DNA of 42,630 nucleotides from Bifidobacterium breve (GTDB lineage Bacteria > Actinomycetota > Thermoleophilia > Gaiellales > F1-60-MAGs149): assembly GCA_945877865.1 (NCBI GenBank), contig CAMDVX010000002.1, forward strand, positions 1 to 42,630, in the 5' to 3' direction. Under the pieces are notes generated by a model. It was not told the DNA's origin, did no database searches, and was given only the letters and a program-made list of their open reading frames with translations. Numbering within the stretch: position 1 is the stretch's first letter; each line of letters begins with the position of its first letter. The position numbers and the translations under genes were made by a program. This document shows positions 2,673 through 18,256 of the stretch, piece after piece.

Positions 2673-2720
2673 ACGACCTCCCGGCGCTGAACCGTATCAG
2701 CGGATCAGCGCAGCGTCACG

Positions 2721-2769: not shown

Positions 2770-2776
2770 GAACCCA

Positions 2777-3468: not shown

Positions 3469-4701
3469 TCAGGATGCAACGGTGGCAGGGGCGCCGCCGA
3501 TGGCGCCGGACTCCGCGAGCGCGGCGATCTCCGCGCTCGAGTACCCCAGCTCGCTGAGGACCTCGTCGGTACAGGCCCCTCGTCGCAGCCCGGCATGGCG
3601 CACGGCGCCCGGCGTCTTGGAGAGGCGCGGCGTGACGGCCGATTGGACGAGGTAGCCTGCGCCGTCGGGATTCGCGACCGAGGCGATTGAGCCGCGAGCC
3701 TGAACGTGCTCATCCTCGAGCAGCAGGGCCGCGTCGTAGACCGGGCCGGCCGCTGCTCCAGCGGCAGCCATGACGCCGACCGCATCGCGCCACTCCCGCT
3801 GCGACGTCCACGCGGTGATCGCCTGATCGAGCGCCTCAACGTGCTTGATGCGTGACGCGCCGGTCAAGAAGCGCGGGTCGTCGGCCAGCGTGTCGCCTCC
3901 AACCACCTGGAGGATCCGGCGAGCGACCGAGTCTGCGGAGCCGGACATGCAGATCCAGCCGTCCTTGCACGGGTAGACGTTGCGCGGAGCCGAGAACCAG
4001 AGCCGTGAGCCAATCCGCTGGTCGGAGACGCCAGTGCGCTGCGTGATCGTCGTGCCGGGGCCGACGATATCCAGCATCGATTCGAGCAGCGTGGCGTCGA
4101 TTACCTGGCCCTCGCCCGTCTGATCGCGATGCCGCAGAGCAGCGAGGACGCTGAAGGCCGCCAGCGCGCCGGTCACCTCGTCGGCCAGTGCAATCGGAGG
4201 GAGGGTCGGTGGGCCGTCGGGCTGTCCCGTGGTGAAGGCGAGCGTGCTCATCGCCTCGGCGATCGTGCCGAAGCCCGCCCGATCCGAGTACGGACCATCC
4301 TGTCCGAAGCCCGTCACGCGGAGCACCACGAGGCCGGGGTTCTCGTCCAGCAACACCGTCTCCGGATCCAGCCCGAGGCGCTCCAGGGTGCCAGGGCGAA
4401 AGTTCTCAATCAGCACGTCGGCGCTGCGCACCAGCCGCAGCAGGACCTCGCGTCCGCGCGGGTGCTTGAGGTCGAGCTCCATCGGGCGCTTGTTGCGACC
4501 GATCAGCCGCCAGTAGAAGCCGTCCGAGCCGTCGCTCTCCCCGAGGGTGCGTGCGCCGTCGCCCACCCCAGGGCGCTCGATCTTGATGACGTCCGCGCCG
4601 AAGTCTGCCAGCCGCCGCGCCGCGCTCGGTCCCGCAAACACCGTCGCGAGGTCGAGCACGCGAATGCCGGTGAGCGGACCCTCGTGCGCGAGGCCCGCCA
4701 C
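3469..4701 (-). CDS. family III CoA-transferase (CaiB/BaiF family)
   Basis: 410 aa. N-terminus PLTGIRVLDLATVFAGPSAARRLADFGADVIKIERP is the hallmark of class III CoA-transferases. It starts 1 nt after the aminotransferase stop. Confidence 0.85.
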   Translation of the reverse strand: MAGLAHEGPLTGIRVLDLATVFAGPSAARRLADFGADVIKIERPGVGDGARTLGESDGSDGFYWRLIGRNKRPMELDLKHPRGREVLLRLVRSADVLIENFRPGTLERLGLDPETVLLDENPGLVVLRVTGFGQDGPYSDRAGFGTIAEAMSTLAFTTGQPDGPPTLPPIALADEVTGALAAFSVLAALRHRDQTGEGQVIDATLLESMLDIVGPGTTITQRTGVSDQRIGSRLWFSAPRNVYPCKDGWICMSGSADSVARRILQVVGGDTLADDPRFLTGASRIKHVEALDQAITAWTSQREWRDAVGVMAAAGAAAGPVYDAALLLEDEHVQARGSIASVANPDGAGYLVQSAVTPRLSKTPGAVRHAGLRRGACTDEVLSELGYSSAEIAALAESGAIGGAPATVAS

Positions 4702-4702
4702 G

Positions 4703-5851
4703 TCAGCGAGCCAGAACCTGGTCGAAGGCCGCCAGCACGCGATCTGCAGTCGGTCGATTGGCGTTCACGCCCATCATGCCGATGCGCCAGATTGGAGGAG
4801 CGGTCGGGCCAAGCCCGCCACCGACCTCGATGTTGTGTGCGCCGAGCAGCTCGGCCTGGACGGCCTTGCCGTCGACGTGCTCGGGAACGCAGACTGCGGT
4901 CAGCTGAGCCAGCTGGCAACCGGCGTCCGCCAGCAGCTCGAAGCCCCGCTCCTGGAAGCCTGCCTGCAGGTAGGCGCCAGCGTCGGCGTGCCGCGCGTAG
5001 CGGGCGTTGAGGCCTTCGGCGAGGCTGAGACGCAGCGCCTCCCCGAGCGCGTAGTACTGCAGGTTCGGTGTGGTGTGGTGATACGTCATTGGCCGGTCCA
5101 GCCAGAACCTCAGGTGCTCAGCAAGGTCGAGCGAGTAGGGCACCGACATACCATCGCGACCAAGCCGGTCGATCGCGCGCGTCGAGAGGGTGATTGGGGA
5201 CAGACCGGGAGGCGCCGCGAGGCACTTCTGGCTGCAGGCGTAGGCGTAGTCAATGCCCCACTCGTCGGCTTCGATCGGCATGCCGCCGATCGCCGTGACG
5301 CAGTCGGCATAGAGCAGCGCATCGTGTCCCGACGCACGCAGCGCGGCACCGAGGTCCGCGACGGGGTAGGCCACGCCGGTCGACGTCTCGGCGTAGACCA
5401 CGCAAACCATCACGGCCTCCGGATGCGCGGCCAGCGCGTCCATGACCTGCTCAACAGGAACGTGCTGGCCGAATGGCACGGTCAGCTCGACGGTGTTTGC
5501 CCCGCGCCGACGCAGCATCTCGATGATGCGGTGACCAAAGAACCCCCCGCTGCAGGCGATAACTGTGTCGCCTGGAGCGACGAGGTTGACGATCCCGGCC
5601 TCCATGCCGCTCGTGCCACTAGCCGAGAGGCAGAGCGAGGCCCCGTCAGAGCGTCCGTAGACCGTGCCAATCATGTCTGCCATCACGAGGAGCTCGTCCC
5701 AGAAGACTGGGTCGAGGTGTCCGATCAGTGGCTTCGACATGGCGGCAACAACGCGGGCGTCGACGTTAGACGGGCCAGGACCGGTCAGCAGGCGGAGCGG
5801 CGGCTGAAACGCGGCTGGGGTGGTCGAAGCGGCGGGAACGGTGGTACTCAA
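4703..5851 (-). CDS. class V aminotransferase (serine-glyoxylate / alanine-glyoxylate aminotransferase-like)
   Basis: LLTGPGPSNV N-terminal motif and SQK PLP-lysine motif (ACSQKCLAAPPGLSP). The track ORF begins at a GTG at 5881. I prefer the TTG at 5851, which is preceded by AGGAG with 8-nt spacing. Confidence 0.85.
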   Translation of the reverse strand: MSTTVPAASTTPAAFQPPLRLLTGPGPSNVDARVVAAMSKPLIGHLDPVFWDELLVMADMIGTVYGRSDGASLCLSASGTSGMEAGIVNLVAPGDTVIACSGGFFGHRIIEMLRRRGANTVELTVPFGQHVPVEQVMDALAAHPEAVMVCVVYAETSTGVAYPVADLGAALRASGHDALLYADCVTAIGGMPIEADEWGIDYAYACSQKCLAAPPGLSPITLSTRAIDRLGRDGMSVPYSLDLAEHLRFWLDRPMTYHHTTPNLQYYALGEALRLSLAEGLNARYARHADAGAYLQAGFQERGFELLADAGCQLAQLTAVCVPEHVDGKAVQAELLGAHNIEVGGGLGPTAPPIWRIGMMGVNANRPTADRVLAAFDQVLAR

Positions 5852-6101
5852 GCGAGAATCTCCTGCTCTGGTTGAACGCACTCTACGTGCAGCGCTCCAT
5901 GACGACCAACACGAATTCGCCGCTGATTGATCGGAGAATACCGATTAGACGCGCAGGCTCAGGTGCTCGAAGCATCGACCGTCGTCACGCACACGGACGC
6001 TGATCTCTGGCGTCGTCGTGGTGCTGCGGCGTGCGGAAGCAGCTGGCTGCTGACCGTGACCCTCACCGACCAGCGGTTCGAAAGGCGGTCCACCACCCGC
6101 G

Positions 6102-7070
6102 TCAGGCTCCCGTCAGCCGGTCTGCGCGGGTGACCACGTTCTCGGCCATGCGAATCGACGCGGCGTCGATGAGGCGACCATCGAGCGAGACGGCGCCTCG
6201 GCCGACGCGGGCGGCGTCCTCCATCGCGGCCATGATGCGTCGAGCCCGATCGATCTCGGCGGGCTGTGGCGAGAACACGCTGTTGGCGAGCTCGACCTGC
6301 GAGGGGTGGATCGCCCACTTGCCCTCGCAGCCGAGCGCGGCCGCCCGGCGCGCGGCCATCAGGTAGCCCTCAGGATCGTTGAAATCGCCGAACGGTCCGT
6401 CGATTGGGCGCAGGCCGGTCGCGCGACACGCCACGATCATCCGCGAGAGCGCGAAGTGCCACGGGTCGCCCCAATGCAGCTCGCGCGAGCCATCTGCGGC
6501 TGCGTCGGTGAGGACCGCATACTCCGGCGTGACGCCGCCAATCACGACGGTTCGGGCGCGCGTCGAGGCCGCGTAGTCGGCGACGCCAAACGACAGCGCC
6601 TCCAGCCGCTCGGGGCAGGTCTCCGCGATCCGCTCGACGTTTGCCATGCCCGGCGCGGTCTCGATGAGCGCCGTCAGGGCGATCGTGTCGTAGCCGTACG
6701 CCTGCTCAATCTGGCTGAGCAGCATGGCGACGAACTCGATATCCGACGGCCTGCCAACCTTCGGGATGAGGAGCATGTCAAGCCGATTGCCGACGGCCTC
6801 GACGATGTCGACGATGTCACGGTACGCCCAGTGCGTGTCGAGCCCGTTGATACGGACCGAGACTGCGCAGCTGGACCAGTCATCAGACGTCAGGGATGCG
6901 ATGGCGTTCTTGCGAGCCTGCACCTTGTCGTCGGGGGCGACGGCATCCTCAAGGTCGAGGAAGACGATGTCGGCGCCAGCATGGGGTGCCTTGGCAAGCA
7001 TCTTCAGGTTCGAAGCGGGGACGGCGAGCTCAGAGCGGTGGAGGCGATCACGGTTCGGCATGCCACGCAC
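6102..7070 (-). CDS. HpcH/HpaI-CitE family acyl-CoA lyase, L-malyl-CoA/beta-methylmalyl-CoA lyase-like
   Basis: About 320 aa. RSELAVPASN...ADIVFLDLEDAVAPDDK motif and a length typical of malyl-CoA lyases rather than short CitE. The start may be the ATG at 7061 (MPNRD...), which lies 7 nt downstream of a TACCGT -10-like hexamer and so may be leaderless. Confidence 0.85.
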   Translation of the reverse strand: MRGMPNRDRLHRSELAVPASNLKMLAKAPHAGADIVFLDLEDAVAPDDKVQARKNAIASLTSDDWSSCAVSVRINGLDTHWAYRDIVDIVEAVGNRLDMLLIPKVGRPSDIEFVAMLLSQIEQAYGYDTIALTALIETAPGMANVERIAETCPERLEALSFGVADYAASTRARTVVIGGVTPEYAVLTDAAADGSRELHWGDPWHFALSRMIVACRATGLRPIDGPFGDFNDPEGYLMAARRAAALGCEGKWAIHPSQVELANSVFSPQPAEIDRARRIMAAMEDAARVGRGAVSLDGRLIDAASIRMAENVVTRADRLTGA

Positions 7071-7132
7071 GGTACGACAAGAACAGTTGGACTTCCAGCG
7101 GGTACTCGTGTCTAATTGATAGGACAGTGGCT

Positions 7133-8005
7133 ATGACACTCTCTCAGCTACGAACCTTCCTTGCCGTCGCCGACGATGGGTCCGTCCGTGCAGCCGCCGT
7201 CCGCCTCCGCGTCTCACAGCCCTCGGTCTCAGGCAGCATCGCCGCACTCAGCGAGGAGGTTGGCGTTGCTCTGACCGAGCGTGACGGTCGTGGAGTCAGG
7301 CTCAGCGCCGGTGGGCGAGCCTTCCTGCCCCACGCCCGCGAGGCGCTTGGCCTGCTTGAGCAAGGTGCGCGGCTCGCCCAGAGCGCCGCCAGCGAGGGAT
7401 ACGCGACGGTCCGCATTGCGGCCGTCTACACCGCGGCGGAGCACCTGCTTCCGCCTCTGCTGCGCGCCTTTCGTGAGGAGCATCCTGGCATCCCAATTGA
7501 GCTTGAGATCGGCAACCGCGAGCATGTGCTGGACCTGCTCGGAGCACGCGCCGCGGACATTGGCATCGGCGGCCGGACTCCAGACGGCGGCCAGTTCGAC
7601 GGCCTGCGTATCGCGGTCAATGAGCACGCTGTGGTCGCAGCTCCCGATCATCCGCTGGCCGGGCGCGAACGAGTGCCAATCGCGGAGCTCGCAGGGGAGA
7701 CCTGGCTGGTGCGCGAAGAGGCCTCGGGCACACGACGGCTCGTTGACGAGTACCTCGCCGCCGCCCGGATCTCGCCTCCGCTGACGACGATTGGGTCGAA
7801 CAGCGCGGTCGCCGCCTCCGCGATGGTTGGCCTCGGCATCGGCGTCGTGCCTGCCGTGGCCGTTCAGCACCAGCTCGTCGCAGGTACGCTTGCGCGCCTC
7901 GCCGTTGATCCCGAGCCGCCCTCCCGCGATTGGTTCGCGCTGCTGCCCACCCGCAGGCCGCATCCAGCCGCCCGCACGCTGGCCGCGTTTCTCAGTCGGT
8001 CCTGA
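7133..8005 (+). CDS. LysR-family transcriptional regulator
   Basis: MTLSQLRTFLAVADDGSVRAAAVRLRVSQPSVSGSIAALSEE is a canonical LTTR wHTH N-terminus. It is divergent from the lyase gene (62-71 nt apart). The track ORF from 6896 is an artefactual extension running through the lyase gene. Confidence 0.9.
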   Translation: MTLSQLRTFLAVADDGSVRAAAVRLRVSQPSVSGSIAALSEEVGVALTERDGRGVRLSAGGRAFLPHAREALGLLEQGARLAQSAASEGYATVRIAAVYTAAEHLLPPLLRAFREEHPGIPIELEIGNREHVLDLLGARAADIGIGGRTPDGGQFDGLRIAVNEHAVVAAPDHPLAGRERVPIAELAGETWLVREEASGTRRLVDEYLAAARISPPLTTIGSNSAVAASAMVGLGIGVVPAVAVQHQLVAGTLARLAVDPEPPSRDWFALLPTRRPHPAARTLAAFLSRS

Positions 8006-8822
8006 GGAACCTGACGATGCGGTCGGCGATCTCGTCGGGCCGCTCAATGTGCAGCCAGTGGCCGACGCCAGCGACCTGCTCCAGCTCGAGGCCAGCCGCA
8101 AAGCGCCCCGCGATCTCCGTGTAGCAGGCGGAGCCGATGCAGCCGTCCGCGGAGCCGTGCAGCACGAGCGCGGGGACCAGCACGTCGCCGGTCTGTGAGG
8201 TTGCCGTCAGGTCGTCGTGGTACCAGCGGTGGATCGCAAGCCCAACCTCGGGGCGGGCGAGTGCAGCGAGCACAAGCGGCCACTCAGCCCGCTCGAAGCC
8301 GGGTGACCATTCGGCATGCACCTGCGCGAGCCAGCTCGGATCGGTTGCCAGCGCGGGTGCGTCGGACGAGAAGGCGAGGATCCACGCGTAGGCTGCCGTC
8401 TTCTGCTCTGCGAGCTCCCGCCGGCGGACGCTAAACCCTGCCGGGTGCGGCACTGCCAGCGCAGCGATCCGACGAATGCGATCGGCATGATCAGCACCCA
8501 GATCGTAGGCCACGAGACCGCCCCAGTCGTGGCCGATCACCGCACACCGCTCGAGCCCGAGCGCGTCAAGCACCGCGATCATGTCGCCGGCTACCGCTGA
8601 CGTCCGGTAGTCGTCGACCGGCCCCGACGGGGAGTAGCCGGGCAGCGCGGGAACGATCGCACGGAAGCCTTGCTCAACCAGGCGTTCAACGAGCGGTCGG
8701 AGGCCGACCGGGACGTCTGGGAACCCGTGCAGCACCAGCACAGGCTCGCCTTCGCCAGCATCCCAGACCGCCAGGTCCGCGCGGGCTCGCACGATCCGTG
8801 GGGGCTGGTCGAACAGGTCCAT
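7992..8822 (-). CDS. alpha/beta hydrolase with Asp nucleophile (epoxide hydrolase / haloalkane-haloacid dehalogenase type)
   Basis: 276 aa. HGFP oxyanion motif (VLVLHGFPDVP), nucleophile elbow VIGHDWGG with Asp rather than Ser, acid LHGSADG, and C-terminal His in GVGHWLHIERPDE. Last gene of the dehydratase operon; its 3' end overlaps the convergent LysR gene by 14 nt. Confidence 0.8.
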   Translation of the reverse strand: MDLFDQPPRIVRARADLAVWDAGEGEPVLVLHGFPDVPVGLRPLVERLVEQGFRAIVPALPGYSPSGPVDDYRTSAVAGDMIAVLDALGLERCAVIGHDWGGLVAYDLGADHADRIRRIAALAVPHPAGFSVRRRELAEQKTAAYAWILAFSSDAPALATDPSWLAQVHAEWSPGFERAEWPLVLAALARPEVGLAIHRWYHDDLTATSQTGDVLVPALVLHGSADGCIGSACYTEIAGRFAAGLELEQVAGVGHWLHIERPDEIADRIVRFLRTD

Positions 8823-8824
8823 GC

Positions 8825-9619
8825 CTAGATCGCCGTGAAGCCGCCGTCGACCGGGAGAATCACGCCCGTCAGCCAGGCGGCGTCGTCGGAGGCGAGAAAG
8901 AAGGCGGCGCCAGCGATGTCCTCGGCCTCGCCTAAGCGTGGCAGCGGCGTTGCCGCCTGAAGCCCGGCCAGCTTGGTCGGATCATCCCAGAGGTTCCGGG
9001 TCATCGCCGTGCGGACGTACCCGGGGCAGATGGCGTTGACGGTGATCGAGTGCTCGGCCAGCTCGATCGCGAGCGTACGCGTCAGCTGGATGACCGCTCC
9101 CTTGCTCATGTTGTAGTGGTAGCCGGTGCGGATGCCGGTGAGCCCTGCGATCGACGCGAGCGTAATGATGCGGCCGCCGCGACCGGCTGCGACCATCGCA
9201 CGCGACGCCTCTCGACACGTCCACCAGACGCCGTCCTGATTGACCGACTGCACCTGCTTGTAGGCCGCAAAGTCCTCGTCGACCAGCTTGTAGGCCATCG
9301 GCGAGACGCCGGCATTTGCCACCGCGATATCAAGACCGCCAAACGCCGAGGTGGCGTGGGCGACCGCCGCGGCGACGGCCACACCGTCGGTGACATCGCA
9401 GGGGACGAAGGCCGCGCGGCCGCCAGCGGCCCGAATTGCCTGATCCGTCGGCGTGGCGTCCTCCCAACCGCCGGCGACCGGCTCGGGCGTGAGATCGGCG
9501 CACACCACCGCTGCACCTTCGGCGGCAAATCGCAGGGCCATCGCCCGGCCATTGCCGCTCGACGCCCCGGTAATCAGCGCGACCTTACCTGCCAGCCGTC
9601 GATCGGTTCCTGCGCTCAT
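8825..9619 (-). CDS. short-chain dehydrogenase/reductase (classical SDR)
   Basis: 264 aa with TGASSGNG, NAGV, and catalytic S...YNMSK. Its stop lies 2 nt before the hydrolase start. Confidence 0.85.
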   Translation of the reverse strand: MSAGTDRRLAGKVALITGASSGNGRAMALRFAAEGAAVVCADLTPEPVAGGWEDATPTDQAIRAAGGRAAFVPCDVTDGVAVAAAVAHATSAFGGLDIAVANAGVSPMAYKLVDEDFAAYKQVQSVNQDGVWWTCREASRAMVAAGRGGRIITLASIAGLTGIRTGYHYNMSKGAVIQLTRTLAIELAEHSITVNAICPGYVRTAMTRNLWDDPTKLAGLQAATPLPRLGEAEDIAGAAFFLASDDAAWLTGVILPVDGGFTAI

Positions 9620-9628
9620 CGTTCGCTC

Positions 9629-10180
9629 CTAGTCCTCAGCCCGGGTCTCCGCCGCCATGACCGCGTCGCGGCCACCGTCAAGCCGAATCGTTGCACCGTT
9701 GAGGGCTACGAGGTCGCCAGCGAGCGTCATTCGGACGACCGCCGCAACCTCCTCGAGCGGCACGTCATCGGCGACGGCGACGCCGTTCACGGCGAGTCCG
9801 GGCAGCGCGGAGCTAACCTCAACCAGCATCGCGAGACCCGCCGCCACGACTGAGCGGGCACCGTCGCGGTGGTCGGGCATGCAGGCAGACGCGGGAAAGA
9901 CCAGGGTGATCCGCAGCGGCTGCCCGAGCGCGGCGAGCGTCTTGACGGCGCCGGCGGGAACGGTCAGCCACGCGTCTGCCAGCCGGGCGAACGCGTCAGG
10001 CGAGGTCTGCCCAAGCGTCTCGCCCCGCTCGGGTAGCGCCACGATCACGGCGCGGTCGATGCCGCTCGCCGAAGCGAGCTCGGCGCAGACAGCGGTGCGA
10101 GTCGTCAGCGGGCAATGCGAGGTGCCGCCGATTGCTGCTGCCAGCTCGGCCGGACCACCGACGACGAGGATGCCAGTCAT
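9629..10180 (-). CDS. degenerate SDR-like protein lacking catalytic residues (pseudo-enzyme partner?)
   Basis: 183 aa. It keeps SDR-like N-terminal (ILVVGGPAELAAAIGG), LAVNGVAV and C-terminal (LNGATIRLDGG) segments. It contains no tyrosine at all, so it cannot have the YxxxK catalytic motif. A 4-nt overlap couples it to the upstream SDR. Confidence 0.55.
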   Translation of the reverse strand: MTGILVVGGPAELAAAIGGTSHCPLTTRTAVCAELASASGIDRAVIVALPERGETLGQTSPDAFARLADAWLTVPAGAVKTLAALGQPLRITLVFPASACMPDHRDGARSVVAAGLAMLVEVSSALPGLAVNGVAVADDVPLEEVAAVVRMTLAGDLVALNGATIRLDGGRDAVMAAETRAED

Positions 10181-10935
10181 GACGACGCCTCCTGCGCGGC
10201 CGTGAAGCCCGTGCTGGAGGAGCGCATCCCAGCATCGATCAGCAGGCCCACGCCGGAGATGCGTCGGGCCTCGCCTGAGAGCAGGAACGCGGCGGCTGCG
10301 GCAACATCATCTGCCTCGACGATCTGGCCGAGCGGAGGCGGCAGCCAGCCATCGGAGGTGCCGGGAGCTCGACGCCCCGTCGTTGTCGTCAGCATCCCCG
10401 GCGCCGTATCGCCGGGGCAGAGCGCGTTGACGCGGATGCCCTGCGGACCCCACTCTGCTGCGAGGCAGCGCGCCATCGCCAGCACCATCCGCTTCGTCAC
10501 CGAGTAGGCGGCAATTGGCGCCTCGCCCCACACCCCCGCATCTGAGGACGTGAAGAGCAGCGAGCCGCCGGTTGCCGCGAGGTGCGCGCGCGCCGCAAGC
10601 GCCTGGCTCTGGACGGCCAGCACGTTGACGTGGAGCAGGAGGTCCCAGTCAGCGTCCGGCGTGCTCAGCAGATCGGCGTCCAAGATGACGCCAGCGTTGA
10701 GGACGGCTGCATCGAGTCCGCCGAGCGCTCGCGCAGCGTCAGCCACCGGGTCGTGGGTCGGATCGGTGTTGTCGCCAACGATCGCCACGCCGCCGACCTC
10801 AGCGGCGAGTGCGCTCGCGCGCTCGACCGATCTTCCCGCAACTGCGACGTGCCAGCCGTCAGCAGCAAGCCGCCGGCAAATCGCCGCGCCGATGCCGGAG
10901 GTTCCGCCGGTGACGAGCACTCGGCCGGCGCTCAT
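10177..10935 (-). CDS. short-chain dehydrogenase/reductase (classical SDR)
   Basis: Start MSAGRVLVTGGTSGIGAA at the ATG at 10935. It has LNAGV, TSSDAG and YSVTK. The track ORF extends to 11259 through the reactivase small-subunit gene, which is an artefact. Confidence 0.85.
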   Translation of the reverse strand: MSAGRVLVTGGTSGIGAAICRRLAADGWHVAVAGRSVERASALAAEVGGVAIVGDNTDPTHDPVADAARALGGLDAAVLNAGVILDADLLSTPDADWDLLLHVNVLAVQSQALAARAHLAATGGSLLFTSSDAGVWGEAPIAAYSVTKRMVLAMARCLAAEWGPQGIRVNALCPGDTAPGMLTTTTGRRAPGTSDGWLPPPLGQIVEADDVAAAAAFLLSGEARRISGVGLLIDAGMRSSSTGFTAAQEASS

Positions 10936-11246
10936 CGTGGGCCAGTCAACGGGCGGCGGGCAACCAGTCGAGCAGCCTGGCGGCCGATCAGGCGAGCCTC
11001 GCTCACTGGCCCTTCGAGGTACGCCACGGGCGGGCCGCTGGCGAGGCTGACGACGATGCGCTGCTCGTCCACCGCGATCCCGACGGCGAGCGGCGAGCGA
11101 CGAGCGGCGGCGCGGGCCTCCGGCAAGGCCCCAGCAGGTGCCTCCGCGACGACGTGCAGCGGTACCGCCTCCTCTTCGAACGAGGCACGGATGGCGGCCA
11201 CGGCGACGGGGTTGACGGCGGACAGGTAGACGGCGGGTGCGCTCAT
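10932..11246 (-). CDS. ddrB: diol/glycerol dehydratase reactivase, small (beta) subunit
   Basis: 104 aa, with size and position typical of DdrB/PduH directly after the large reactivase subunit. It has 4-nt overlaps on both sides. Sequence similarity is judged by eye only. Confidence 0.65.
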   Translation of the reverse strand: MSAPAVYLSAVNPVAVAAIRASFEEEAVPLHVVAEAPAGALPEARAAARRSPLAVGIAVDEQRIVVSLASGPPVAYLEGPVSEARLIGRQAARLVARRPLTGPR

Positions 11247-12931
11247 GACGCACCAGCATGCAGGATGATCAGGCCGACCGCCACCGCAGCCCGCGGACCG
11301 TGGCGTCCGAGGACGTCACCGCGGGCGACAGCGAGGTCAAGGTCGGCGACGGCCAGCGCGATTTCCCCAACGACCTCAGGATCGGCGGCGCAGCCCCCGA
11401 CGAGCACCACCAGCTCGCCACGCGGGAGGCCACCGAGGGCAGCCGCCGCGCGGCGGAGGTTGCCCGCCAGCACGTCGCGCTTGGCGGCCCGTCGCAGCCG
11501 GGCCCAGACCTCCGGCGTCAGACCGGCCGGCAGCGGATCGAGCGCGCCTTGACGTCGCTCGCTGAGGCAGAGCCGTGCGACAGCATGGGAAGGCGCGGGG
11601 GTGGCGAGGAAGCTGCGCGAGCCGTCCTCGTGCCGGAGAATGAACGGCGTCTCGACGTGCACGCTCGGCAGGCGCTTGGCGCGCTCGGCGCGCAGCGGGT
11701 CGACGCCGAGGATTGCACCGCAGATCCGGTCGACGAGGAGGCCCGCACCGGCGGCAGCAACTGCCCGCGCTACACCGTCGTGCTGGACGTGCAGGTCGAC
11801 GGTGCCCCCGCCCATGTCGATCACGATCGGAGCGTGGCCTGCGCCCGGGGTCGTTGAGGCGCCGGCGACGGCAGCTGCCGTCTCGCTGGCCACGACGAGC
11901 ACCTCGCCGGCAAACCGGGTGGCCAACACCGATTCCAGCGCTCGGTCCTCCCGCCGGGCGAGCAGCGCCAGCCCAACCGCGCGGCGGTGGAGGAGACGCA
12001 GCGCCACAGCGGCGTCGTCTGTCGCAGCGGGCAGTGGCGTCCAGAACGCGTCAAGCAGCGCGTCGTCGATGCCGTCGACGCGCTCGACCAAGCCCACGGC
12101 AGGCGGCGGCGAGCCGACGTCGATTGGCACCACGGTTCCATCGGCGAGGTGCGCGCAGCGCGGTGCGGTCGCTGCTGCGACCGTTTGCCCGGCTTCGCGC
12201 CGCACGACGATACCGGCACGATGACCGACCAGCGCTCGGGCTGCGTGGCGGATGCCTCTCGCCCGCGTGGGATCGAGCGACAGCAGGACCGCCAACCGCA
12301 GCGGATCCGTCAGCTCGGTCAGCATCAGGCCGGGCTGTGCAACTTCGACCGCAGCCCAAGCGCCTCGCGGCAGCGCGCTAGCATCGTGGACCTCATCGAT
12401 GATTGGCAGGGTTCGATCGACCCGGTTGCCGATCAGCACCGCATCGTCCCCGGTGGCGATGACCGCTGCGAGCTGCCAGCCACGATCCCGTGCGGCGTTT
12501 AGCGCAGCAGCCGCAGCAGCGAAGTCCTCGTCGCCGACGATCACGATGACGGGAGGGGCCGTGGCAGCGGTCGTGAGATCGGCGAGATCGACGAGCAGCC
12601 CCGCGGCGGCGCCGTGCCCCGAAGGGGTCGAGCTGGCCGGTCGTGCGATTGCGACGCCACCGAGGTCGAGCTCGTCCTCCGTGGCGAGCTCGCGCAGACC
12701 CGTCTCCACCGGGTGGAGGTCAGCCAGCAGCAGGCGTGTTGGCTGCTCGCCGAGGCGTCGGCCAGCGCGCGCCACGAGGTCGATGACCCCGTCGGCTGAG
12801 GCCGCTGAACCCTTGGGACCGGTGGTCGGGCCTCGCACGACGGACAGGTGCTCCGGGGCGCGACCCGGAGCGAGCCGGGCCAAGGCGACCTCGGTCGTTG
12901 CATTACCGACGTCAACGCCCGCGACGAGCAC
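11243..12931 (-). CDS. ddrA: diol/glycerol dehydratase reactivase, large (alpha) ATPase subunit
   Basis: The N-terminus V-LVAGVDVGNATTEVALARL matches the DdrA/PduG start (MPLIAGIDIGNATTEVAL). The GTG at 12931 follows the small-subunit stop as TGAcGTG. The track ORF start at 13111 overlaps the preceding gene and is rejected. Confidence 0.85.
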   Translation of the reverse strand: MLVAGVDVGNATTEVALARLAPGRAPEHLSVVRGPTTGPKGSAASADGVIDLVARAGRRLGEQPTRLLLADLHPVETGLRELATEDELDLGGVAIARPASSTPSGHGAAAGLLVDLADLTTAATAPPVIVIVGDEDFAAAAAALNAARDRGWQLAAVIATGDDAVLIGNRVDRTLPIIDEVHDASALPRGAWAAVEVAQPGLMLTELTDPLRLAVLLSLDPTRARGIRHAARALVGHRAGIVVRREAGQTVAAATAPRCAHLADGTVVPIDVGSPPPAVGLVERVDGIDDALLDAFWTPLPAATDDAAVALRLLHRRAVGLALLARREDRALESVLATRFAGEVLVVASETAAAVAGASTTPGAGHAPIVIDMGGGTVDLHVQHDGVARAVAAAGAGLLVDRICGAILGVDPLRAERAKRLPSVHVETPFILRHEDGSRSFLATPAPSHAVARLCLSERRQGALDPLPAGLTPEVWARLRRAAKRDVLAGNLRRAAAALGGLPRGELVVLVGGCAADPEVVGEIALAVADLDLAVARGDVLGRHGPRAAVAVGLIILHAGAS

Positions 12932-12932
12932 G

Positions 12933-13331
12933 TCAGCCGAACAGCCCGCGCCGCGCGTAGTGCTCGCGGGCCTCGAGCACCAGCGCTGCACAGCGGTCAG
13001 CACCACCAGCGGCGAGCTCTGCTGCGATCGCAAGGAGCTCCTGCTCCGATGAGCGACCTGGGCGCAGGGCGTCATAGAAACGCAGCACGTCGTCGTCTGC
13101 GAACAGGGCAAGCTCCGCTCCGCGCCGCAAGTTCTCTGCCAGCTGGGGATTACCGGCCTGCTCCGCGAAGGTCGCTTGGAGGTGCAGGGTGCTTGGGTCC
13201 ACGCGGGCGTCCACCGCGGAGACGGCGCCAGCGCGGACGTCGGCGACGGTCAGCTGGCTGGCTTTCCGGCCCGATTGTGCGGCGATGCGGCTGCGATCGC
13301 CCTCGCCGAGGGGGTAGGTCAGCTCGGCCAT
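12933..13331 (-). CDS. pduE: B12-dependent diol/glycerol dehydratase small (gamma) subunit
   Basis: 132 aa. Size, position and the PLGEGD...SG....L....V....V...D.RV....L..QA..AE..G...LA.N..RGAEL pattern are typical of PduE/GldC-type small subunits. Confidence 0.8.
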   Translation of the reverse strand: MAELTYPLGEGDRSRIAAQSGRKASQLTVADVRAGAVSAVDARVDPSTLHLQATFAEQAGNPQLAENLRRGAELALFADDDVLRFYDALRPGRSSEQELLAIAAELAAGGADRCAALVLEAREHYARRGLFG

Positions 13332-15568
13332 GTGGCCTCCACGGTCTGCGGCGGGCCAGGCCGGACGCGGGCTCGCTCACGCGCCACGAGGGCGACGACC
13401 TTGGCGTGGTAGCGGGGGCCGAACGCCTCGCCGGACTCGGGTAAGAGGACGGGCGCCGGTTGCTCTCCGCGGGCGTGTCGGGCCGCATTGCGGCCCATCA
13501 GCCGGTAGCGAGCGCCGTCGATCAGCGGTGCGACGCTCAGCAGCTCGAGGTTTGAGAGCACAGGTAGGTCAGCACGGTGGATCAGCGCTGTGCCCTTGCC
13601 TTGCATGCCGAGTGCGACTCCGCTGCCCGAGAGATTCGCCGCCGTCCAGCCGATCATGCCGAGGTCGATGGAGTGGGTGACACGCACGATCCTCGCCGCC
13701 ACTCCTTCCTCCTCGATTCCCGCCAGCACCTGCCGCAGCGCTTCAGCGACCGTCAGCCCCGACAGCGTCAGCCACACGTCGACGCCGAAGGCGGGGGAGA
13801 TGCCGACGACTACCTCGTCTGGGCGTGGCCGAGCCTCAGCCGGTCCGCGGTCGCTCAGCTGGATGCAGCCAGCGACCGGGGCCTGCTCGGCAAGCAGCTC
13901 GTCATGGCTACGGACCTGACGCACCTGCGCCATCTCAAGCTTGCGTGCTCGTGACGGACGGTAGCCCGTACCTGGCCCGGCGTAGTCGTTTGGGTCCGTC
14001 AGCCCTGACAGCACGTGCATGTCTTCGTCGAAGATGGCCGAGGTCTGCAGGTGATCGCCAAACAGCCGCTGGCGCGTCATCTCGAGCACGCGCTCGGCCT
14101 CCACGTCGAAGCCGCGCACGGCGAGGGCCCGCACGACGTCTATGGCCGTCAGCTCGCGCTCGATGATCGCGTCGCCGGCGCGCGCCGTCTCCTCCGTCTG
14201 GTGCTCCGCCACGTCGAGGCTCCCGTGCGCATGGACGCACCGCTCGACCTCATCATCGGAGAAGCGCATCAGCTCAAGCTCGTCGAGCACGGCTCGGCAG
14301 GCTTCGGCTGCACGGCGTCTAAGCGGGAGCAGCGTCGCGTCGTCGCAGGAGCGCAGGACGCCCTCGAAGCCCCAGTCGCGCTGGATGACGAGGTAGTCGT
14401 CGAGGTCCTCGGCGTTGAAGTTAGAGGGGCCAAAGCTGTTGTCGTAGGTTGGGATGGAGCCGTAGCCGGAGAACAGGAAGTCCGAGCCCGCCAGCAGCAG
14501 CGGCAGGGTGTGCGCGGTGCGGCGCATGTCCGACGCGCTCATCTGCGTGTCGTTGCCAGAGCAGGACTCAAGCCCGTACAGCATCGCGAGCAGGTTCTCG
14601 GCGAGCGCCTCCCGCATGCCGTTCGGCACGGACGCCGTGACGCTGATGCCGTCGATGCCGCCGTTCTGCGTGCCCTGCGAGCCAGCCGCCCGGGTGATCG
14701 CGACGCAGCGGGCCTCGAGGTACAGCATCGACTTGCCTTCAGCGGCGCCCATCAGCACCTCTGCACCCGAACCAGAGGTAAACCGCATCTTCAGGCCGCG
14801 GGAGGCGTATGACGAGGCGAGCAGCGCCTTTGACCACGGCGTATCGTCGCCGTCGAGGAAGACCTGCTCGGTGCCGTAGACGGAGACCGTCTCAGCGTAG
14901 GTGGTGAGCCCACGCAGGCCAAGCTCAAGCTCCGTGCGCTCCTCAACCGAGCACTGGGTTAACGCGCCTGGAGCTGGTCCTTGGCTACCGATCAGCAGCG
15001 CAAGCGCCACGAGCGGGGCATCGCGCAGAACGGGCACGGTCGTCTCCAGCTCGCGGAAGCCAAGCGCGACTGCGCTGGCAGCGTCGGCGGCGATCAGCAG
15101 CGGATGATCGATGCGGTTCGTGACGTGGGCCTGGATGGACGGCGTGCGGCGCACGCGCATCTTCGCCATCGCCTGCATTAGCTCGAGCGGCGACAGCAGC
15201 CCGAGCACGCGGGCGATCTTGGCGGGCGTCGAGCCACCGACGAGGCGGACGACCTCTTGACGCGGGACAGCGGTGCTGACGATCAAGCGGGCGAAGGCGA
15301 CATCATCAATCGCCATCGCCTCCTCGGCGACCGCAGCGTCGATCCCGTGGGCAGCGAGGTAGGCGTCGATGAGATCGAAGTCGGCCTCGGCGACGCCATC
15401 GATCTCAACGACACGGCCAGCGGCAATGCGGATGGACGGCTCCGGATCGTTCGGGCTGGCGAAGGCGATCAGTCCAAGGGCAGGGTCCTCAGGCACCAGG
15501 ACGTCGCGGCTAATCGAGCGCGTCTCGTAGAACGCGCTGCGGAGCGACTTGCCAGAGGGCGTGGCCAC
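13319..15568 (-). CDS. B12-dependent diol/glycerol dehydratase, fused large (alpha) + medium (beta) subunit
   Basis: 749 aa. Residues about 1-555 carry large-subunit motifs (IQAHVTN, FRELETT, TYAETVSVYGTE, SQGTQNGGIDG, GNDTQMSASD, FSGYGSIP, NDYAGPGTGYR). Residues about 584-749 carry the medium-subunit B12-binding core (EVVVGISPAFG...LSGSGVALGMQGKGTALIH). No stop or frameshift lies between the two parts. Confidence 0.9.
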   Translation of the reverse strand: MATPSGKSLRSAFYETRSISRDVLVPEDPALGLIAFASPNDPEPSIRIAAGRVVEIDGVAEADFDLIDAYLAAHGIDAAVAEEAMAIDDVAFARLIVSTAVPRQEVVRLVGGSTPAKIARVLGLLSPLELMQAMAKMRVRRTPSIQAHVTNRIDHPLLIAADAASAVALGFRELETTVPVLRDAPLVALALLIGSQGPAPGALTQCSVEERTELELGLRGLTTYAETVSVYGTEQVFLDGDDTPWSKALLASSYASRGLKMRFTSGSGAEVLMGAAEGKSMLYLEARCVAITRAAGSQGTQNGGIDGISVTASVPNGMREALAENLLAMLYGLESCSGNDTQMSASDMRRTAHTLPLLLAGSDFLFSGYGSIPTYDNSFGPSNFNAEDLDDYLVIQRDWGFEGVLRSCDDATLLPLRRRAAEACRAVLDELELMRFSDDEVERCVHAHGSLDVAEHQTEETARAGDAIIERELTAIDVVRALAVRGFDVEAERVLEMTRQRLFGDHLQTSAIFDEDMHVLSGLTDPNDYAGPGTGYRPSRARKLEMAQVRQVRSHDELLAEQAPVAGCIQLSDRGPAEARPRPDEVVVGISPAFGVDVWLTLSGLTVAEALRQVLAGIEEEGVAARIVRVTHSIDLGMIGWTAANLSGSGVALGMQGKGTALIHRADLPVLSNLELLSVAPLIDGARYRLMGRNAARHARGEQPAPVLLPESGEAFGPRYHAKVVALVARERARVRPGPPQTVEATWPS

Positions 15569-15649
15569 AGCACGATCCTACCGCGTTCCGGAGCGCCGGT
15601 GGGTCCGGGTGCGCGCCGACTGCGTGGCACGACCTGCGACGCTACGTCA

Positions 15650-16606
15650 ATGCGCACGATGCCTCAGGGTGTGGCGAAGTCGACGATGCTAGCCGTCGTC
15701 GGCGATTCGGCCAGTGGTAAGACGACGCTGACGCGGGGCCTCGCCCGCGTGCTGGGCGAGGAGCAGGTGACGCACGTCCCAAGCGACGACTATCACCGCT
15801 ACGACCGCGCCCAGCGGAAGGTGATGGCGATCACGCCGCTGAATCCGAGCGCCAACTACCTCGACATCCTCGAGCGAGATCTTGAGACGCTTGCGACGCA
15901 GCGGGCCGTGCTCAAACCGACCTATCGGCACACCGACGGCACGCTTGGGCCACCGGAGTACCTTCAGCCCGGTCCCTACACCGTCGTCGATGGCCTGCTC
16001 TGCCTTCAGACCGAAGGCCTGCGGCGGCTGTTCGACTGCGCGGTTTACCTTGACCCGCCCGAGGAGATCAGGCGCTCATGGAAGCTGCTGCGCGACACGA
16101 CGCGCCGTGGCTATACGACGGATGAGGTGCTCAATGAGATGGATCGTCGCGACCGCGACTCTGCTCGCTGGGTTCGCCCGCAGCGGGCGTTCTCCGACAT
16201 CGTCATCACGTTCAGGCCGGGCGCGCGGCCGGAGGACAAGAATCTCGACGCGGAGATTCTGCTCCGACCAACGCTGCCGCACCCTGATCTGACGGGTCTG
16301 GCAGGCGAGGGCGCCAGCGACCTGACGATCACCTCGCTCCCACACGGAGAGCAGCTGCTGAGCGTGCCGGGCACGCTGCCAGCAGGACGCGCGCAGGCCA
16401 TCGAGGAGGCGATCTGGGATCGCCTCCACTTCGCACGGCACCTTCAGCTCGACCGGCTCGGCCAGTTTACCCGGGGCGTCGAGCTGTTCCGCTCGGATGC
16501 GCTGGCAATCACCCAGCTGCTCGTGCTCTACCAGCTTGTCACCGCGCGAGCAACACGGGCGCTGGACGTGGCCGGCGCACCGCTGCGTGGCCCGGAGCGC
16601 TCCTAG
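15650..16606 (+). CDS. phosphoribulokinase/uridine kinase family protein (long PRK-like form)
   Basis: 318 aa from the ATG at 15650. P-loop AVVGDSASGKTT, then DDYHRYDR, VDGLL, and YLDPPEEIRRSWKLLRDTTRRGYT. A C-terminal region of about 120 aa resembles long-form PRKs. The track ORF from 15257 runs antisense into the dehydratase gene and is rejected. Confidence 0.8.
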   Translation: MRTMPQGVAKSTMLAVVGDSASGKTTLTRGLARVLGEEQVTHVPSDDYHRYDRAQRKVMAITPLNPSANYLDILERDLETLATQRAVLKPTYRHTDGTLGPPEYLQPGPYTVVDGLLCLQTEGLRRLFDCAVYLDPPEEIRRSWKLLRDTTRRGYTTDEVLNEMDRRDRDSARWVRPQRAFSDIVITFRPGARPEDKNLDAEILLRPTLPHPDLTGLAGEGASDLTITSLPHGEQLLSVPGTLPAGRAQAIEEAIWDRLHFARHLQLDRLGQFTRGVELFRSDALAITQLLVLYQLVTARATRALDVAGAPLRGPERS

Positions 16607-16910
16607 GCAGAGCAAGCTCGAGGCCCAGGTCGCCCGCAGCCGTGGCACCAGCGAAGTCGGGCTGCGGGCAGGTGGCGCCACGTGGTGTAGCGGATCGAGC
16701 GTCGTCCCTGAAGGAGCGTCTCTGCTCCAGGTGATCTCGGCGAGGGTTACCGCGTTCGACGATCGTGGTTGCGATCCGCGCCTTCGCCAGGGCGCCGGCA
16801 TCGCGTGGAGGGTGTCGCCTCATCAATTCGGGTACGTACGAGCACGACGCTGGGTGGGCTGACGATCGCCTCAAGCGACTATCGTTTAGCGATCGGTTCA
16901 GACGAATCGA

Positions 16911-16982
16911 AGGGGCGTAGCTCAGCGGTAGAGCACCCGGCTCATAACCGGTCAGGCCCTGGTTCAAATCCAGGCGCCCCTA
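16911..16982 (+). tRNA. tRNA with CAT anticodon (elongator Met, or Ile2 if lysidinylated)
   Basis: Manual cloverleaf: acceptor AGGGGCG/CGCCCCT, U8, D-arm GCTC-AGCGGTA-GAGC, anticodon arm CCCGG-CTCATAA-CCGGT, T-arm CCTGG-TTCAAAT-CCAGG, discriminator A. The 1:72 pair is formed and there is no GGG:CCC run in the anticodon stem, so it is not an initiator. CCA is not encoded. Confidence 0.9.
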
Positions 16983-16985
16983 TGG

Positions 16986-18233
16986 CTAGTGCTGGGCCGC
17001 GGCGGGCGGTGGTAGCGACGGATCAAGCAGGTGGGCTGCGCGTTGACCGCTGCGGATCGCACCCTCCATGAAGCCCGACCAGACGTCGTCGGTAAACTCG
17101 CCGGCGAGGACGAGCCGCCCGTAGCGTTGGCGAAGCAGGGCGTCGTCGGGACGATTACCCGGGCGCACGTGCGTGTAGATGCCCTGCGCGTAGGGATCAT
17201 CGGCCCACGTCTGGGTGCCTGCGTTGTCGACGTCGAGATCGAGATCCGGACGCACCTCGGCGACGGAACGCGCCCACGTGGAGCCACCTCGCTCGACCTC
17301 AAGCAGCTCCAGCATCGGCTTCGATCCGGCGAAGCCCGCGAGCACGGGGCGGAGGCCGTCGTCGCCTTGGTTGGCGGTCCAGACCCAGTAGTCACGTCGC
17401 GTATCGAGCACGGCGCTGGGCTCTGGATTGCCGGCCAAGGGGACGAATAGCTTCGCCGCGTGCGAGACGCCAAAGGCGCTGGCGGCTGCCAGCACGGCAG
17501 GAGGGAGGAGCGAGCCGAACGGCTCCTGCACCACAATTGGCTGCGGCAGCGCGAGGACGAGGTGCGCCGCCGCGTGCTCGCCCTGTGACGAACGGACCGT
17601 CACACCAGCAGCGGTCACCGAGACGGCTTGGACGGGCTCGCTGAGGCGCACTCGGTCGCCCAGCAGCGCCGCCAGCGCGCGCGTTGGCGCATCGCTGCCC
17701 GTTGCAATGCGTGGGGAGTCCACGTGCTCGGGGGCACTCGCGAGGTGCAGCAGGTGCCATGCGGCAAGCTCCGTCGCGGGTGCGCCGCTCGTGCACTCGA
17801 TACGGGCGCGAAACGCCACCTTGGCGCCCTCGACGGCGTCGAGCCGCTCAATCGCTTCGGCCACCGAGATGGCGTAGGCCTCGTCGCCGAGGTCCGCGAA
17901 CAGCGTGCGCAGTGCGGCGCGCCCGGCTGCCAGCTCCTCCTCCGTCACGGGTGGCCCGCCGACCGGCGTGCGGTGGTGATAGCTCATCCCCGTGCGAGCG
18001 AGTGCGATATCGAGCCGCTGGCAGAGCCCCAGCAGCTCGACCTGCACGTCCTCAACCCATTCCGCGCCGCGCTCAATGAGCGCTCCGTTTGGCAAGCGAT
18101 CGGTCCAAGCACGTCCGCCGACGCGATCGCGTGCCTCAAGGACGGTCACGTCCCAGCCAGCGTTGACGAGTGCTTCGGCGGCGATGAGGCCCGAGAACCC
18201 GGCGCCGACGACGATTGCGGTGTGAGGTTCCAT
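16986..18233 (-). CDS. FAD-dependent amine oxidase (flavin monoamine/polyamine oxidase family)
   Basis: MEPHTAIVVGAGFSGLIAAEALVNAGWDVTVLEARDRVGGR is the dinucleotide-binding plus amine-oxidase signature. The C-terminus has LAGEFT....G.MEGAIRSG. The ATG at 18233 is preferred over the GTG at 18242. Confidence 0.85.
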   Translation of the reverse strand: MEPHTAIVVGAGFSGLIAAEALVNAGWDVTVLEARDRVGGRAWTDRLPNGALIERGAEWVEDVQVELLGLCQRLDIALARTGMSYHHRTPVGGPPVTEEELAAGRAALRTLFADLGDEAYAISVAEAIERLDAVEGAKVAFRARIECTSGAPATELAAWHLLHLASAPEHVDSPRIATGSDAPTRALAALLGDRVRLSEPVQAVSVTAAGVTVRSSQGEHAAAHLVLALPQPIVVQEPFGSLLPPAVLAAASAFGVSHAAKLFVPLAGNPEPSAVLDTRRDYWVWTANQGDDGLRPVLAGFAGSKPMLELLEVERGGSTWARSVAEVRPDLDLDVDNAGTQTWADDPYAQGIYTHVRPGNRPDDALLRQRYGRLVLAGEFTDDVWSGFMEGAIRSGQRAAHLLDPSLPPPAAAQH

Positions 18234-18256
18234 GCCGCACACGGTACTCTCAACCC

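Follow-up and report, generated by a model that had tools for sequence, protein, structure and literature searches.

Does the epoxide hydrolase encoded at the end of a B12-dependent dehydratase operon supply the diol on which the dehydratase acts? The question is raised by an eight-gene cluster in the window, that is, the whole 42.6-kb stretch of DNA analyzed here (contig CAMDVX010000002.1, positions 1 to 42,630), a chromosomal segment of 68% G+C whose nearest relatives are uncultured freshwater Gaiellales/Thermoleophilia metagenome-assembled genomes (MAGs). The genes, g1 to g8, encode an adenosylcobalamin (AdoCbl) dehydratase of the diol/glycerol family, its reactivase, three proteins of the short-chain dehydrogenase/reductase (SDR) type, and an α/β-fold hydrolase. 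The reading preferred here, tentatively and at a probability of about 0.4, is that the B12 dehydratase and its reactivase form a core with SDR partners, which is fed by the epoxide hydrolase (EH) in this lineage.

The dehydratase core and its substrate pocket

The cluster and the region 5′ of it contain the following features.

15569..15649, no strand: divergent intergenic region of ∼80 bp between g1 and a PRK/uridine-kinase-like gene, the presumed operon promoter region
13319..15568, minus strand: g1, AdoCbl diol/glycerol-family dehydratase, a natural fusion of the α (large) and β (medium) subunits, 749 amino acids (PF02286, PF02288, NF011979)
12933..13331, minus strand: g2, dehydratase small (γ) subunit, short form, 132 amino acids (PF02287)
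11243..12931, minus strand: g3, reactivase α (DdrA/GdrA/PduG-like), 562 amino acids, GTG start at 12931 (PF08841, PF18427, TIGR04491)
10932..11246, minus strand: g4, reactivase β (DdrB/GdrB-like), 104 amino acids (PF02288, E=1.4e-11), with ATGA overlaps on both sides
10177..10935, minus strand: g5, classical SDR, 252 amino acids (adh_short_C2, E=1.9e-41), TGGTSGIG and YSVTK motifs intact
9629..10180, minus strand: g6, decayed SDR-fold protein, 183 amino acids, lineage-restricted (AlphaFold2 [AF2], Foldseek, hhalign)
8825..9619, minus strand: g7, classical SDR, 264 amino acids (adh_short_C2, E=2.2e-58), TGASSGNG and YNMSK motifs intact
7992..8822, minus strand: g8, α/β-fold epoxide hydrolase, 276 amino acids (signature motifs, PDB profile, AF2/Foldseek)

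The eight minus-strand open reading frames (ORFs) occupy positions 7992–15568, and every junction, read from the ORF coordinates and the junction letters, is either an overlap or a gap of 9 nt or less. g1 and g2 overlap by 13 nt at 13319–13331 (ATGGCCGAGCTGA), with GGAGG immediately 5′. The g2/g3 junction is TGAcGTG at 12929–12935, and ATGA overlaps of 4 nt join g3 to g4 (11243–11246), g4 to g5 (10932–10935), and g5 to g6 (10177–10180). A gap of 9 nt separates g6 from g7 and one of 2 nt separates g7 from g8, the latter spacing being consistent with translational coupling. This packing, with its overlaps and its gaps of 9 and 2 nt, had been described in an earlier note on the same DNA and was reproduced in full; the TGAcGTG motif is also present as the note had it, at 12929–12935 instead of the 12931–12935 given there, a trivial slip. 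No σ70-like promoter or intrinsic terminator consensus was found within 6800–16800 in a scan not tuned to high-GC actinobacterial promoters, and the absence of such internal signals fits a single transcription unit for g1–g8. Neither a B12 riboswitch or other leader nor a consensus promoter was detected 5′ of g1, where the divergent PRK-like ORF has candidate ATG starts at 15650, 15659, and 15683.

Profile hidden Markov model searches with all eight proteins, a check that the earlier note had suggested, confirmed the gene order: fused αβ dehydratase (PF02286 and PF02288 in 749 amino acids), γ (PF02287), reactivase α (PF08841 and PF18427), reactivase β (PF02288), SDR (adh_short), decayed SDR (g6, no family match), SDR (adh_short), and α/β hydrolase (Abhydrolase_1). 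The identities proposed in that note, including a "dead SDR-like" g6, were upheld by these searches and, for g6, by structure prediction and hhalign. In g1, PF02286 matches residues 7–555 (E=9e-233) and PF02288 residues 592–704 (E=1e-27); in g2, residues 4–129 fall on positions 4–130 of PF02287 (E=1.4e-33), so that the large, medium, and small dehydratase domains are all present in the two proteins. The best PDB matches of g1 are engineered α-β fusions and 1iwp/1dio. A gapless alignment to 1dio/1iwp places g1 residues Q146, H148, E175, E226, Q301, D340, S367, and F379 on the Ca2+ ligands and catalytic residues of the Klebsiella oxytoca enzyme (Gln141, His143, Glu170, Glu221, Gln296, Asp335, Ser362, and Phe374), and all are invariant in 153 homologs. 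Judged by its residues, g1/g2 is thus a predicted AdoCbl-dependent vicinal-diol dehydratase. It is accompanied by a dedicated two-subunit reactivase, in which g3 has both the DDR domain (PF08841, E=3.6e-48) and the swiveling domain (PF18427, E=1.4e-35) and aligns to TIGR04491 from residue 2 when the GTG at 12931 is taken as the start; g4 is the second subunit.

The substrate pocket differs from that of the characterized enzymes. In the same alignment, Ser301 and Gln336 of K. oxytoca are replaced by Asp306 and Thr341, and these replacements are the rule among 153 close homologs, 152 of which have the Asp and 150 the Thr. Ser301 and Gln336 contact the C3 substituent of glycerol or 1,2-propanediol, and their mutation alters inactivation by glycerol and admits longer 1,2-diols (PMC7674605); attempts to engineer dehydratases for longer or substituted diols have gone through these same two residues (Yamanishi et al., 2012, cited in PMC7674605). 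Since both C3-contacting residues are Asp/Thr rather than Ser/Gln, the natural substrate of g1/g2 is probably something other than plain glycerol or 1,2-propanediol. Representatives of clusters at 50% identity split into three pocket flavors, the canonical S/Q, S/A, and D/(T,A), and the D flavor, encoded also at positions 8983–11256 of locus L203 and 9968–12232 of locus L031, is shared by Shinella and Ruegeria enzymes. A widespread subfamily with the D/T pocket, annotated "propanediol/glycerol dehydratase," therefore probably acts on another diol. The recognition of this non-canonical pocket is a new point, beyond what the earlier note could see.

These observations bear on the most conventional explanation of the locus, an ordinary dha-like module for glycerol or 1,2-propanediol, in which SDRs replace DhaT/PduQ and g8 converts glycidol or propylene oxide. 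The routes would be glycerol to 3-hydroxypropanal to 1,3-propanediol, or 1,2-propanediol to propanal to propanol. Indeed, g1 scores above the cutoff of the NCBIfam subfamily for large subunits of propanediol/glycerol dehydratases (NF011979, 828 bits against 788), the catalytic residues are all conserved, and a reactivase is present as in dha and pdu. The Asp/Thr pocket argues against such a module, as do the status of S/Q as a separate flavor of the family and the absence of DhaT/PduQ, PduP, PduL/W, DhaD/K, and PduO genes from the window in Pfam scans. We regard it as clearly unlikely.

No bacterial microcompartment (BMC) shell, aldehyde dehydrogenase, Fe-type alcohol dehydrogenase, or adenosyltransferase gene was found in the window when all sizeable ORFs were searched with Pfam, in agreement with the earlier note, which had listed the aldehyde dehydrogenase as CoA-acylating. 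PF00936 and PF03319 were absent from the ORFs scanned, tblastn of the window with BMC-H and BMC-T proteins from L042, a sister locus, gave nothing better than E=1, and tblastn with an Aldedh protein from a relative found no aldehyde dehydrogenase gene. A GTDB scan with a Thermoleophilia BMC-H returned, as its best 80, loci from many phyla and none from assemblies of this clade, and is uninformative on shell genes. The N-terminal extensions of PduD and PduE carry encapsulation peptides; such extensions are not available here, as β is fused to the C terminus of α and has no free N terminus, and γ lacks the PduE-type extension, its match to the PduE model beginning at profile position 43. The earlier note had contrasted this state with shells in characterized dha loci, a premise that is wrong for Klebsiella and Citrobacter, whose dha regulon has no microcompartment shell. 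Natural α-β fusions have been described for Mycobacterium smegmatis and Mesorhizobium loti (PMC7674605). The shell-less state and the fusion are both already known and not unusual. As a separate observation, L042 carries a BMC shell/Aldedh locus (1–4207) 6–10 kb upstream of its fused dehydratase.

The hydrolase and the three SDR-type genes

The g8 protein carries the motifs HGFP (32–35) and GHDWGG (97–102). In 42 homologs of 34%–73% identity, H32-G33, P35-D36, G97-H-D99-W-G101, Y145, Y201, D226, and H255 are invariant, as F34 very nearly is. A profile of the g8 family matches CH65-EH (5ng7) in the PDB over its full length with E=7e-59. The catalytic residues of CH65-EH are Phe34, Asp101, Trp102, Tyr148, Tyr209, Asp241, and His270 (PMC6198070), and all seven align one-to-one with F34, D99, W100, Y145, Y201, D226, and H255 of g8, the cap tyrosines Y145/Y201 corresponding to Tyr148/Tyr209 and the relay H255/D226 to His270/Asp241. 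The AF2 model (predicted local distance difference test [pLDDT] 96.7) has 5ng7/8agn as its best Foldseek matches, with a query TM-score (TMq) of 0.88–0.90. Close behind are fluoroacetate dehalogenases (0.83–0.87) and the isobutylene EH of Mycolicibacterium (9c2g, 0.84). With CH65-EH and EchA of Agrobacterium radiobacter (1ehy), g8 shares the fold (TMq 0.89), HGXP, the Asp-His-Asp triad, and the two cap tyrosines; it differs from them in its short chain (276 amino acids) with a compact cap and in an identity of only ∼22% in the structural alignment. It further has a family-specific cap motif, W172-S173-P174 (window 8309–8317), which is nearly invariant in the g8 family and has no counterpart in CH65-EH; it may line the substrate pocket or bind halide.

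Could g8 instead be a dehalogenase, of the haloalkane or haloacid type, that converts a halogenated precursor to an alcohol or diol? Four features are those of subfamily I haloalkane dehalogenases (HLD-I), namely the Asp nucleophile, a Trp directly after it, the acid after strand 7, and the nearly invariant cap Trp172, and among the structural matches fluoroacetate dehalogenases come second. The two ring-opening tyrosines, however, do not vary and align with those of CH65-EH, and HGFP stands in place of HGNP. The Arg pair that follows the nucleophile in fluoroacetate dehalogenases is missing, the residues in g8 being D99-W-G-G-L. The top 42 PDB matches of the family profile are almost all named EHs and include no named dehalogenase, and no haloalkane dehalogenase occurs among the 60 matches listed. 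A dehalogenase function is therefore unlikely, and we consider this alternative highly improbable. By every criterion of sequence and predicted fold g8 is an EH, in line with the earlier note's assignment to the Asp-nucleophile, EH-type hydrolases, with which the full motif set, the PDB profile, and the fold agree.

Less can be read from the two intact SDRs. All NCBIfam equivalogs scored under cutoff for g5 and g7, save a generic "glucose 1-dehydrogenase" subfamily for g7 (g7 against NF005559, 245 bits; cutoff 215), and the PDB neighbors are generic SDRs from which a substrate is not readable. The protein encoded between them, g6, has no sequence match in Pfam, NCBIfam, or the PDB. Only 42 homologs, at 47%–67% identity, were found among 5.8 billion clusters, and wherever a locus was seen, the homolog is encoded between g5 and g7 of this operon. 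The AF2 model (pLDDT 88.6) nevertheless matches SDRs in Foldseek at TMq 0.72–0.78, and hhalign relates g6 to the g5/g7 family with 91.5% probability and to the second SDR of L049, a locus of an independent Actinomycetota MAG, with 94.9%. The TGxxxGxG Gly-rich cofactor motif is absent from g6. At the catalytic positions, Ser is replaced by Ala97, Lys by Ala114, and Tyr by Ser110 in the global hhalign alignment or by Arg109 in the local alignment to L049. The L049 protein is a normal SDR of 240 amino acids encoded after a g5-like SDR; it has AYSVAK where g6 has ARSVVA and GATIRIDGA where g6 has GATIRLDGG, and resembles an intact version of g6. Because 26 columns, including PDHxDGxRS and NGATIRLDGGRDA, are still invariant, g6 is evidently maintained. 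As judged from these residues, g6 is SDR derived and not a functional member of the family; most simply, it is probably a non-catalytic partner subunit.

A role for g6 as a halohydrin dehalogenase was also considered. These enzymes are SDR derived, with a Ser-Tyr-Arg triad replacing Ser-Tyr-Lys, and one of them, HheG, is found among the Foldseek matches of g6 at rank 36. The candidate was rejected, as g6 has no Ser or Tyr at the triad positions in either of the hhalign alignments.

Gene neighborhoods and the proposed route

To place the cluster in context, 38 GTDB loci with relatives of g1 were grouped by tblastn with all window proteins (individual loci are designated here by L plus a number). 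Gene calling based on G+C at third codon positions gave several wrong frames on very high-GC relatives, and precomputed gene calls were used where possible. In the close clade, where g1 is at least 80% identical, the full g1–g8 order is found in 14 species-level genomes. Across these genomes g8 has diverged to 64%–71% and g6 to 41%–65% identity, and the invariant motifs are kept. The flanks are syntenic too, with the PRK-like gene, amine oxidase, and metXW on one side and LysR and HpcH on the other, so the adjacency of g8 and the dehydratase represents a single evolutionary event.

Outside the close clade the SDRs recur and the hydrolase does not. SDR genes flank related dehydratases in L021, L024, L025, L029, L031, L034, L035, L049, and a Shinella plasmid. 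A homolog of g5 (52% identity) lies 3′ of the dehydratase-reactivase operon of L049, and of the g7 homologs from beyond the clade the closest (61%) is found 6 kb downstream of the same operon. There, dehydratase and reactivase are followed by two adjacent intact SDRs and then by the g7-like SDR, which abuts a class-A β-lactamase-like hydrolase gene (3997–5534 and 7785–9610). Among α-proteobacterial homologs of g1 (49%–50% identity), the dehydratase genes lie in sugar-type ABC-transporter operons with an SDR. The link between SDRs and dehydratase is credible because SDRs recur beside the subfamily in several distant lineages. The SDRs are thus recurrent partners, and the hydrolase slot is variable: L041 and L042, from sister Thermoleophilia (g1 71%–74%), encode αβ, γ, Peptidase_S58, reactivase α, reactivase β, and a glyoxalase, and L025 has a Ser-nucleophile hydrolase after γ and its SDR on the opposite strand. 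These recurring hydrolases in sister operons (S58 peptidase, Ser hydrolase, and β-lactamase-like) fit the idea of a "feeder hydrolase" slot. The earlier note had proposed a comparison of this kind for the hydrolase and SDR genes; co-occurrence with the dehydratase in independent lineages was found for the SDRs, and the hydrolase was confined to the close clade, so that one half of the conservation condition by which that note would be refuted holds true. The S58 genes, which are DmpA-like, lie between γ and the reactivase at 12651–13736 in L041 and 12657–13727 in L042; no Peptidase_S58 gene is present in the window.

In the Shinella zoogloeoides plasmid (NZ_CP132313.1, L203), within 5798–16072, a fused dehydratase of the D/T flavor and its γ subunit lie inside a sugar-type ABC-transporter operon that continues with an SDR, an APH-like phosphotransferase, and a class-III aminotransferase; it contains no hydrolase, and no reactivase was found close by. 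The kinase/aminotransferase pair resembles amino-alcohol kinase/phospho-lyase systems and hints at an amino-diol substrate. An amino-diol is accordingly possible as a substrate for the subfamily, given the pocket Asp together with these partners in Shinella.

Viewed from the hydrolase, the neighborhoods are different. None of five g8 homologs looked up (52%–57% identity) is near a dehydratase. Four of them (53%–57%), from other Thermoleophilia, stand alone in the interval from pdxT to pdxS, with yebC-ruvCAB alongside and both pdx genes on the other strand (L040 10001–10834, L043 3224–4051, and two JGI contigs); the fifth is in an unrelated context. Since g8 of the window still lies ∼15 kb from yebC-ruvCAB, divergently oriented as in these outgroups, its capture by a local rearrangement, and not a recruitment for function, is a real possibility, and the pattern suggests a housekeeping EH that was later captured by the operon. 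Among the best 80 more distant EH-like loci (28%–37% identity, 1.3 Mb in total), none has a dehydratase within 10 kb and no reactivase was found. Co-occurrence of some EH-like loci with HpcH/enoyl-CoA hydratase genes was rejected as lineage synteny, as these genes are 5–8 kb off and largely on Acidimicrobiia contigs. The only member of the g8 family seen inside a B12 dehydratase operon is that of this lineage.

How, then, should the operon be read? In the reading preferred here, it would be a non-encapsulated, co-transcribed catabolic module with an AdoCbl vicinal-diol dehydratase (fused αβ plus γ) at its core, kept active by the ATP-dependent reactivase g3/g4. The intact SDRs g5 and g7, with g6, would fill the role of the Fe-type alcohol dehydrogenases of dha and pdu; they may act on the dehydratase product, an aldehyde or ketone, by reduction or oxidation, or may form the diol by acting on a hydroxy-ketone. 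The EH, captured as the last cistron in the freshwater Thermoleophilia lineage, would most likely supply the vicinal diol from an epoxide, giving overall a path from epoxide to diol, to aldehyde or ketone, and to alcohol. Several of the observations weigh against this reading. The EH-dehydratase adjacency occurs only in one freshwater Gaiellales/Thermoleophilia clade; relatives with g1 at 68%–74% identity lack g6 and g8 and have other hydrolase-type genes; the close g8 homologs in other Thermoleophilia stand alone; none of the 80 distant loci places an EH beside a dehydratase; the orientation near yebC-ruvCAB is compatible with local capture; and Pfam scans found no epoxide-forming monooxygenase gene in the window. 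As the hydrolase adjoins the dehydratase only in this clade, the route from epoxide through diol and carbonyl to alcohol is one that we infer from adjacency in a single lineage. The earlier note had proposed essentially this route, with a halohydrin as another possible start and an acid precursor as another possible end. Its components and the SDR link have held; the coupling of epoxide to diol rests on that adjacency.

The same observations speak for an alternative, in which dehydratase, reactivase, and SDRs act on a diol or polyol that is imported and substituted at C3 (an amino-diol, perhaps), and g8 is a co-transcribed passenger, a general housekeeping enzyme of epoxide detoxification that became the last cistron by local rearrangement and does not feed the dehydratase. 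It would explain why four g8 homologs stand alone in a housekeeping neighborhood (pdxT/pdxS, yebC, and ruvCAB), why g8 remains so close to yebC-ruvCAB in the same divergent orientation, and why sister operons keep the SDR partnership and not the hydrolase slot. The Asp306/Thr341 pocket is, moreover, common to the α-proteobacterial homologs in sugar-type ABC-transporter operons, of which that of Shinella has a kinase and an aminotransferase and no hydrolase. On the other hand, the 2-nt spacing of g7 and g8 and an operon that is intact in 14 diverged genomes argue that co-expression has been preserved and, at the least, tolerated, and Pfam scans found no transporter gene adjoining the operon in the window that could import a polyol. 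The passenger role is the main rival, only slightly less probable than the preferred reading. More speculative, and rather unlikely, is the fullest form of the coupling, in which the Asp/Thr-pocket subfamily acts on a vicinal diol that is longer or carries a substituent at C3 (perhaps an amino-diol), is wired here to an EH, and has the decayed SDR as a structural subunit of its reductase; this would be the first genetically defined pathway to combine epoxide opening with removal of the diol through B12 radical chemistry.

Flanking genes, known systems, and biological meaning

The remainder of the window is mostly housekeeping: a met operon with an S-adenosylmethionine (SAM) riboswitch, yebC, ruvCAB, queA, tgt, yajC, secDF, recJ, and relA. 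Features near the operon or with their own signatures are as follows.

∼7130–8005, plus strand: LysR regulator, convergent with g8 (the 3′ ends overlap by 14 nt) and divergent from a minus-strand cluster
16911–16982, plus strand: tRNA gene (69 bits), between the PRK-like gene and the flavin amine oxidase gene
16989–18242, minus strand: flavin amine oxidase gene, adjoining the tRNA gene
21876–21985, minus strand: SAM (S-box) riboswitch (54 bits; gathering score 44), 5′ of a Cys/Met-metabolism pyridoxal phosphate enzyme gene, metX, and metW

The ORF at 20470–22371 runs over the riboswitch, with its Pfam domain starting only at residue 211, so its true start lies downstream of the riboswitch. The minus-strand cluster beyond LysR (604–8005 region) encodes an HpcH/CitE-like lyase, a class-V aminotransferase, a family-III CoA-transferase, an AMP-forming ligase, and an enoyl-CoA hydratase. 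This gene set resembles a CoA-dependent pathway of the C4/C5 dicarboxylate or glyoxylate type and is syntenic in the close clade; no connection between it and the dehydratase operon emerged.

All components of the operon are of known kinds. Nor do the fusion, the lack of a shell, or the SDR partners set it apart within the subfamily. What is new, besides the pocket, is that a complete EH forms the last cistron and that a decayed SDR accompanies it. In the dha regulon, which also has no shell, an AdoCbl dehydratase is likewise served by its own reactivase of two subunits and by its own reductase. The enzyme of Klebsiella pneumoniae and Citrobacter freundii (DhaB1-3, GdrAB, DhaT) is homologous over its full length and has the same Ca2+ and catalytic residues. 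The operon of the window differs from dha in having α and β in one chain, SDRs rather than an Fe-type alcohol dehydrogenase, and the Asp/Thr pocket; DhaD and DhaK are missing, and an EH and a decayed SDR are added. Dehydratase and reactivase are also homologous to those of the pdu metabolosome of Salmonella and Klebsiella, which differs in its BMC shell, PduP, PduQ, PduL/W, and PduO, none of them found in the 42.6 kb, and in the free extensions of its β and γ subunits. Nearer in architecture are the fused dehydratases of M. smegmatis and M. loti (Liu et al., 2010, cited in PMC7674605), where the same two-gene arrangement of αβ and γ is found in shell-less soil and water bacteria; M. smegmatis has three predicted fused dehydratases whose role is untested (PMC8088520). 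Neither PMC7674605 nor PMC8088520 mentions an EH or a decayed SDR with these enzymes.

Parts of the proposed chemistry have parallels in other organisms. The Mycolicibacterium isobutylene EH that matches g8 in structure is also actinobacterial, and the vicinal diol that it makes enters a route containing the AdoCbl enzyme 2-hydroxyisobutyryl-CoA mutase. That B12 enzyme is a CoA-ester mutase and comes several steps further on; it is no diol dehydratase that takes up the product of the EH directly. In 1982, de Bont and colleagues are said to have described, in Nocardia A60 grown on propylene oxide, the conversion of the epoxide to 1,2-propanediol and then, by a diol dehydratase of uncertain cofactor dependence, to propanal; we know of no genes or operon for this route. 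In Lactobacillus brevis, 2,3-butanediol is converted to 2-butanone and then to 2-butanol, with an SDR-type secondary alcohol dehydrogenase acting after a B12 diol dehydratase. Unlike the enzyme of the window, that dehydratase is a canonical, encapsulated PduCDE. A full-text literature search, which left most of the older subscription literature outside its range, found no description of a pathway coupling an EH to a B12 diol dehydratase, or of the D/T dehydratase subfamily; it agrees, weakly, with the earlier note, whose author knew of no such pathway.

Should g8 be no more than a passenger, what remains is a dehydratase-SDR operon of the ordinary, shell-less sort. If the coupling is true, it would constitute a compact, oxygen-independent funnel by which a B12 radical dehydratase channels reactive epoxides toward central metabolism, with alkene or isoprene oxidation or glycidol-type compounds as possible sources of the epoxide. 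It would also add a B12-demanding trait to carbon cycling in lakes, in Actinomycetota that are abundant in freshwater and uncultured. Regardless of the role of the epoxide, the Asp/Thr pocket marks a large subfamily whose enzymes would be useful starting points for the engineering of dehydratases for longer or substituted diols.

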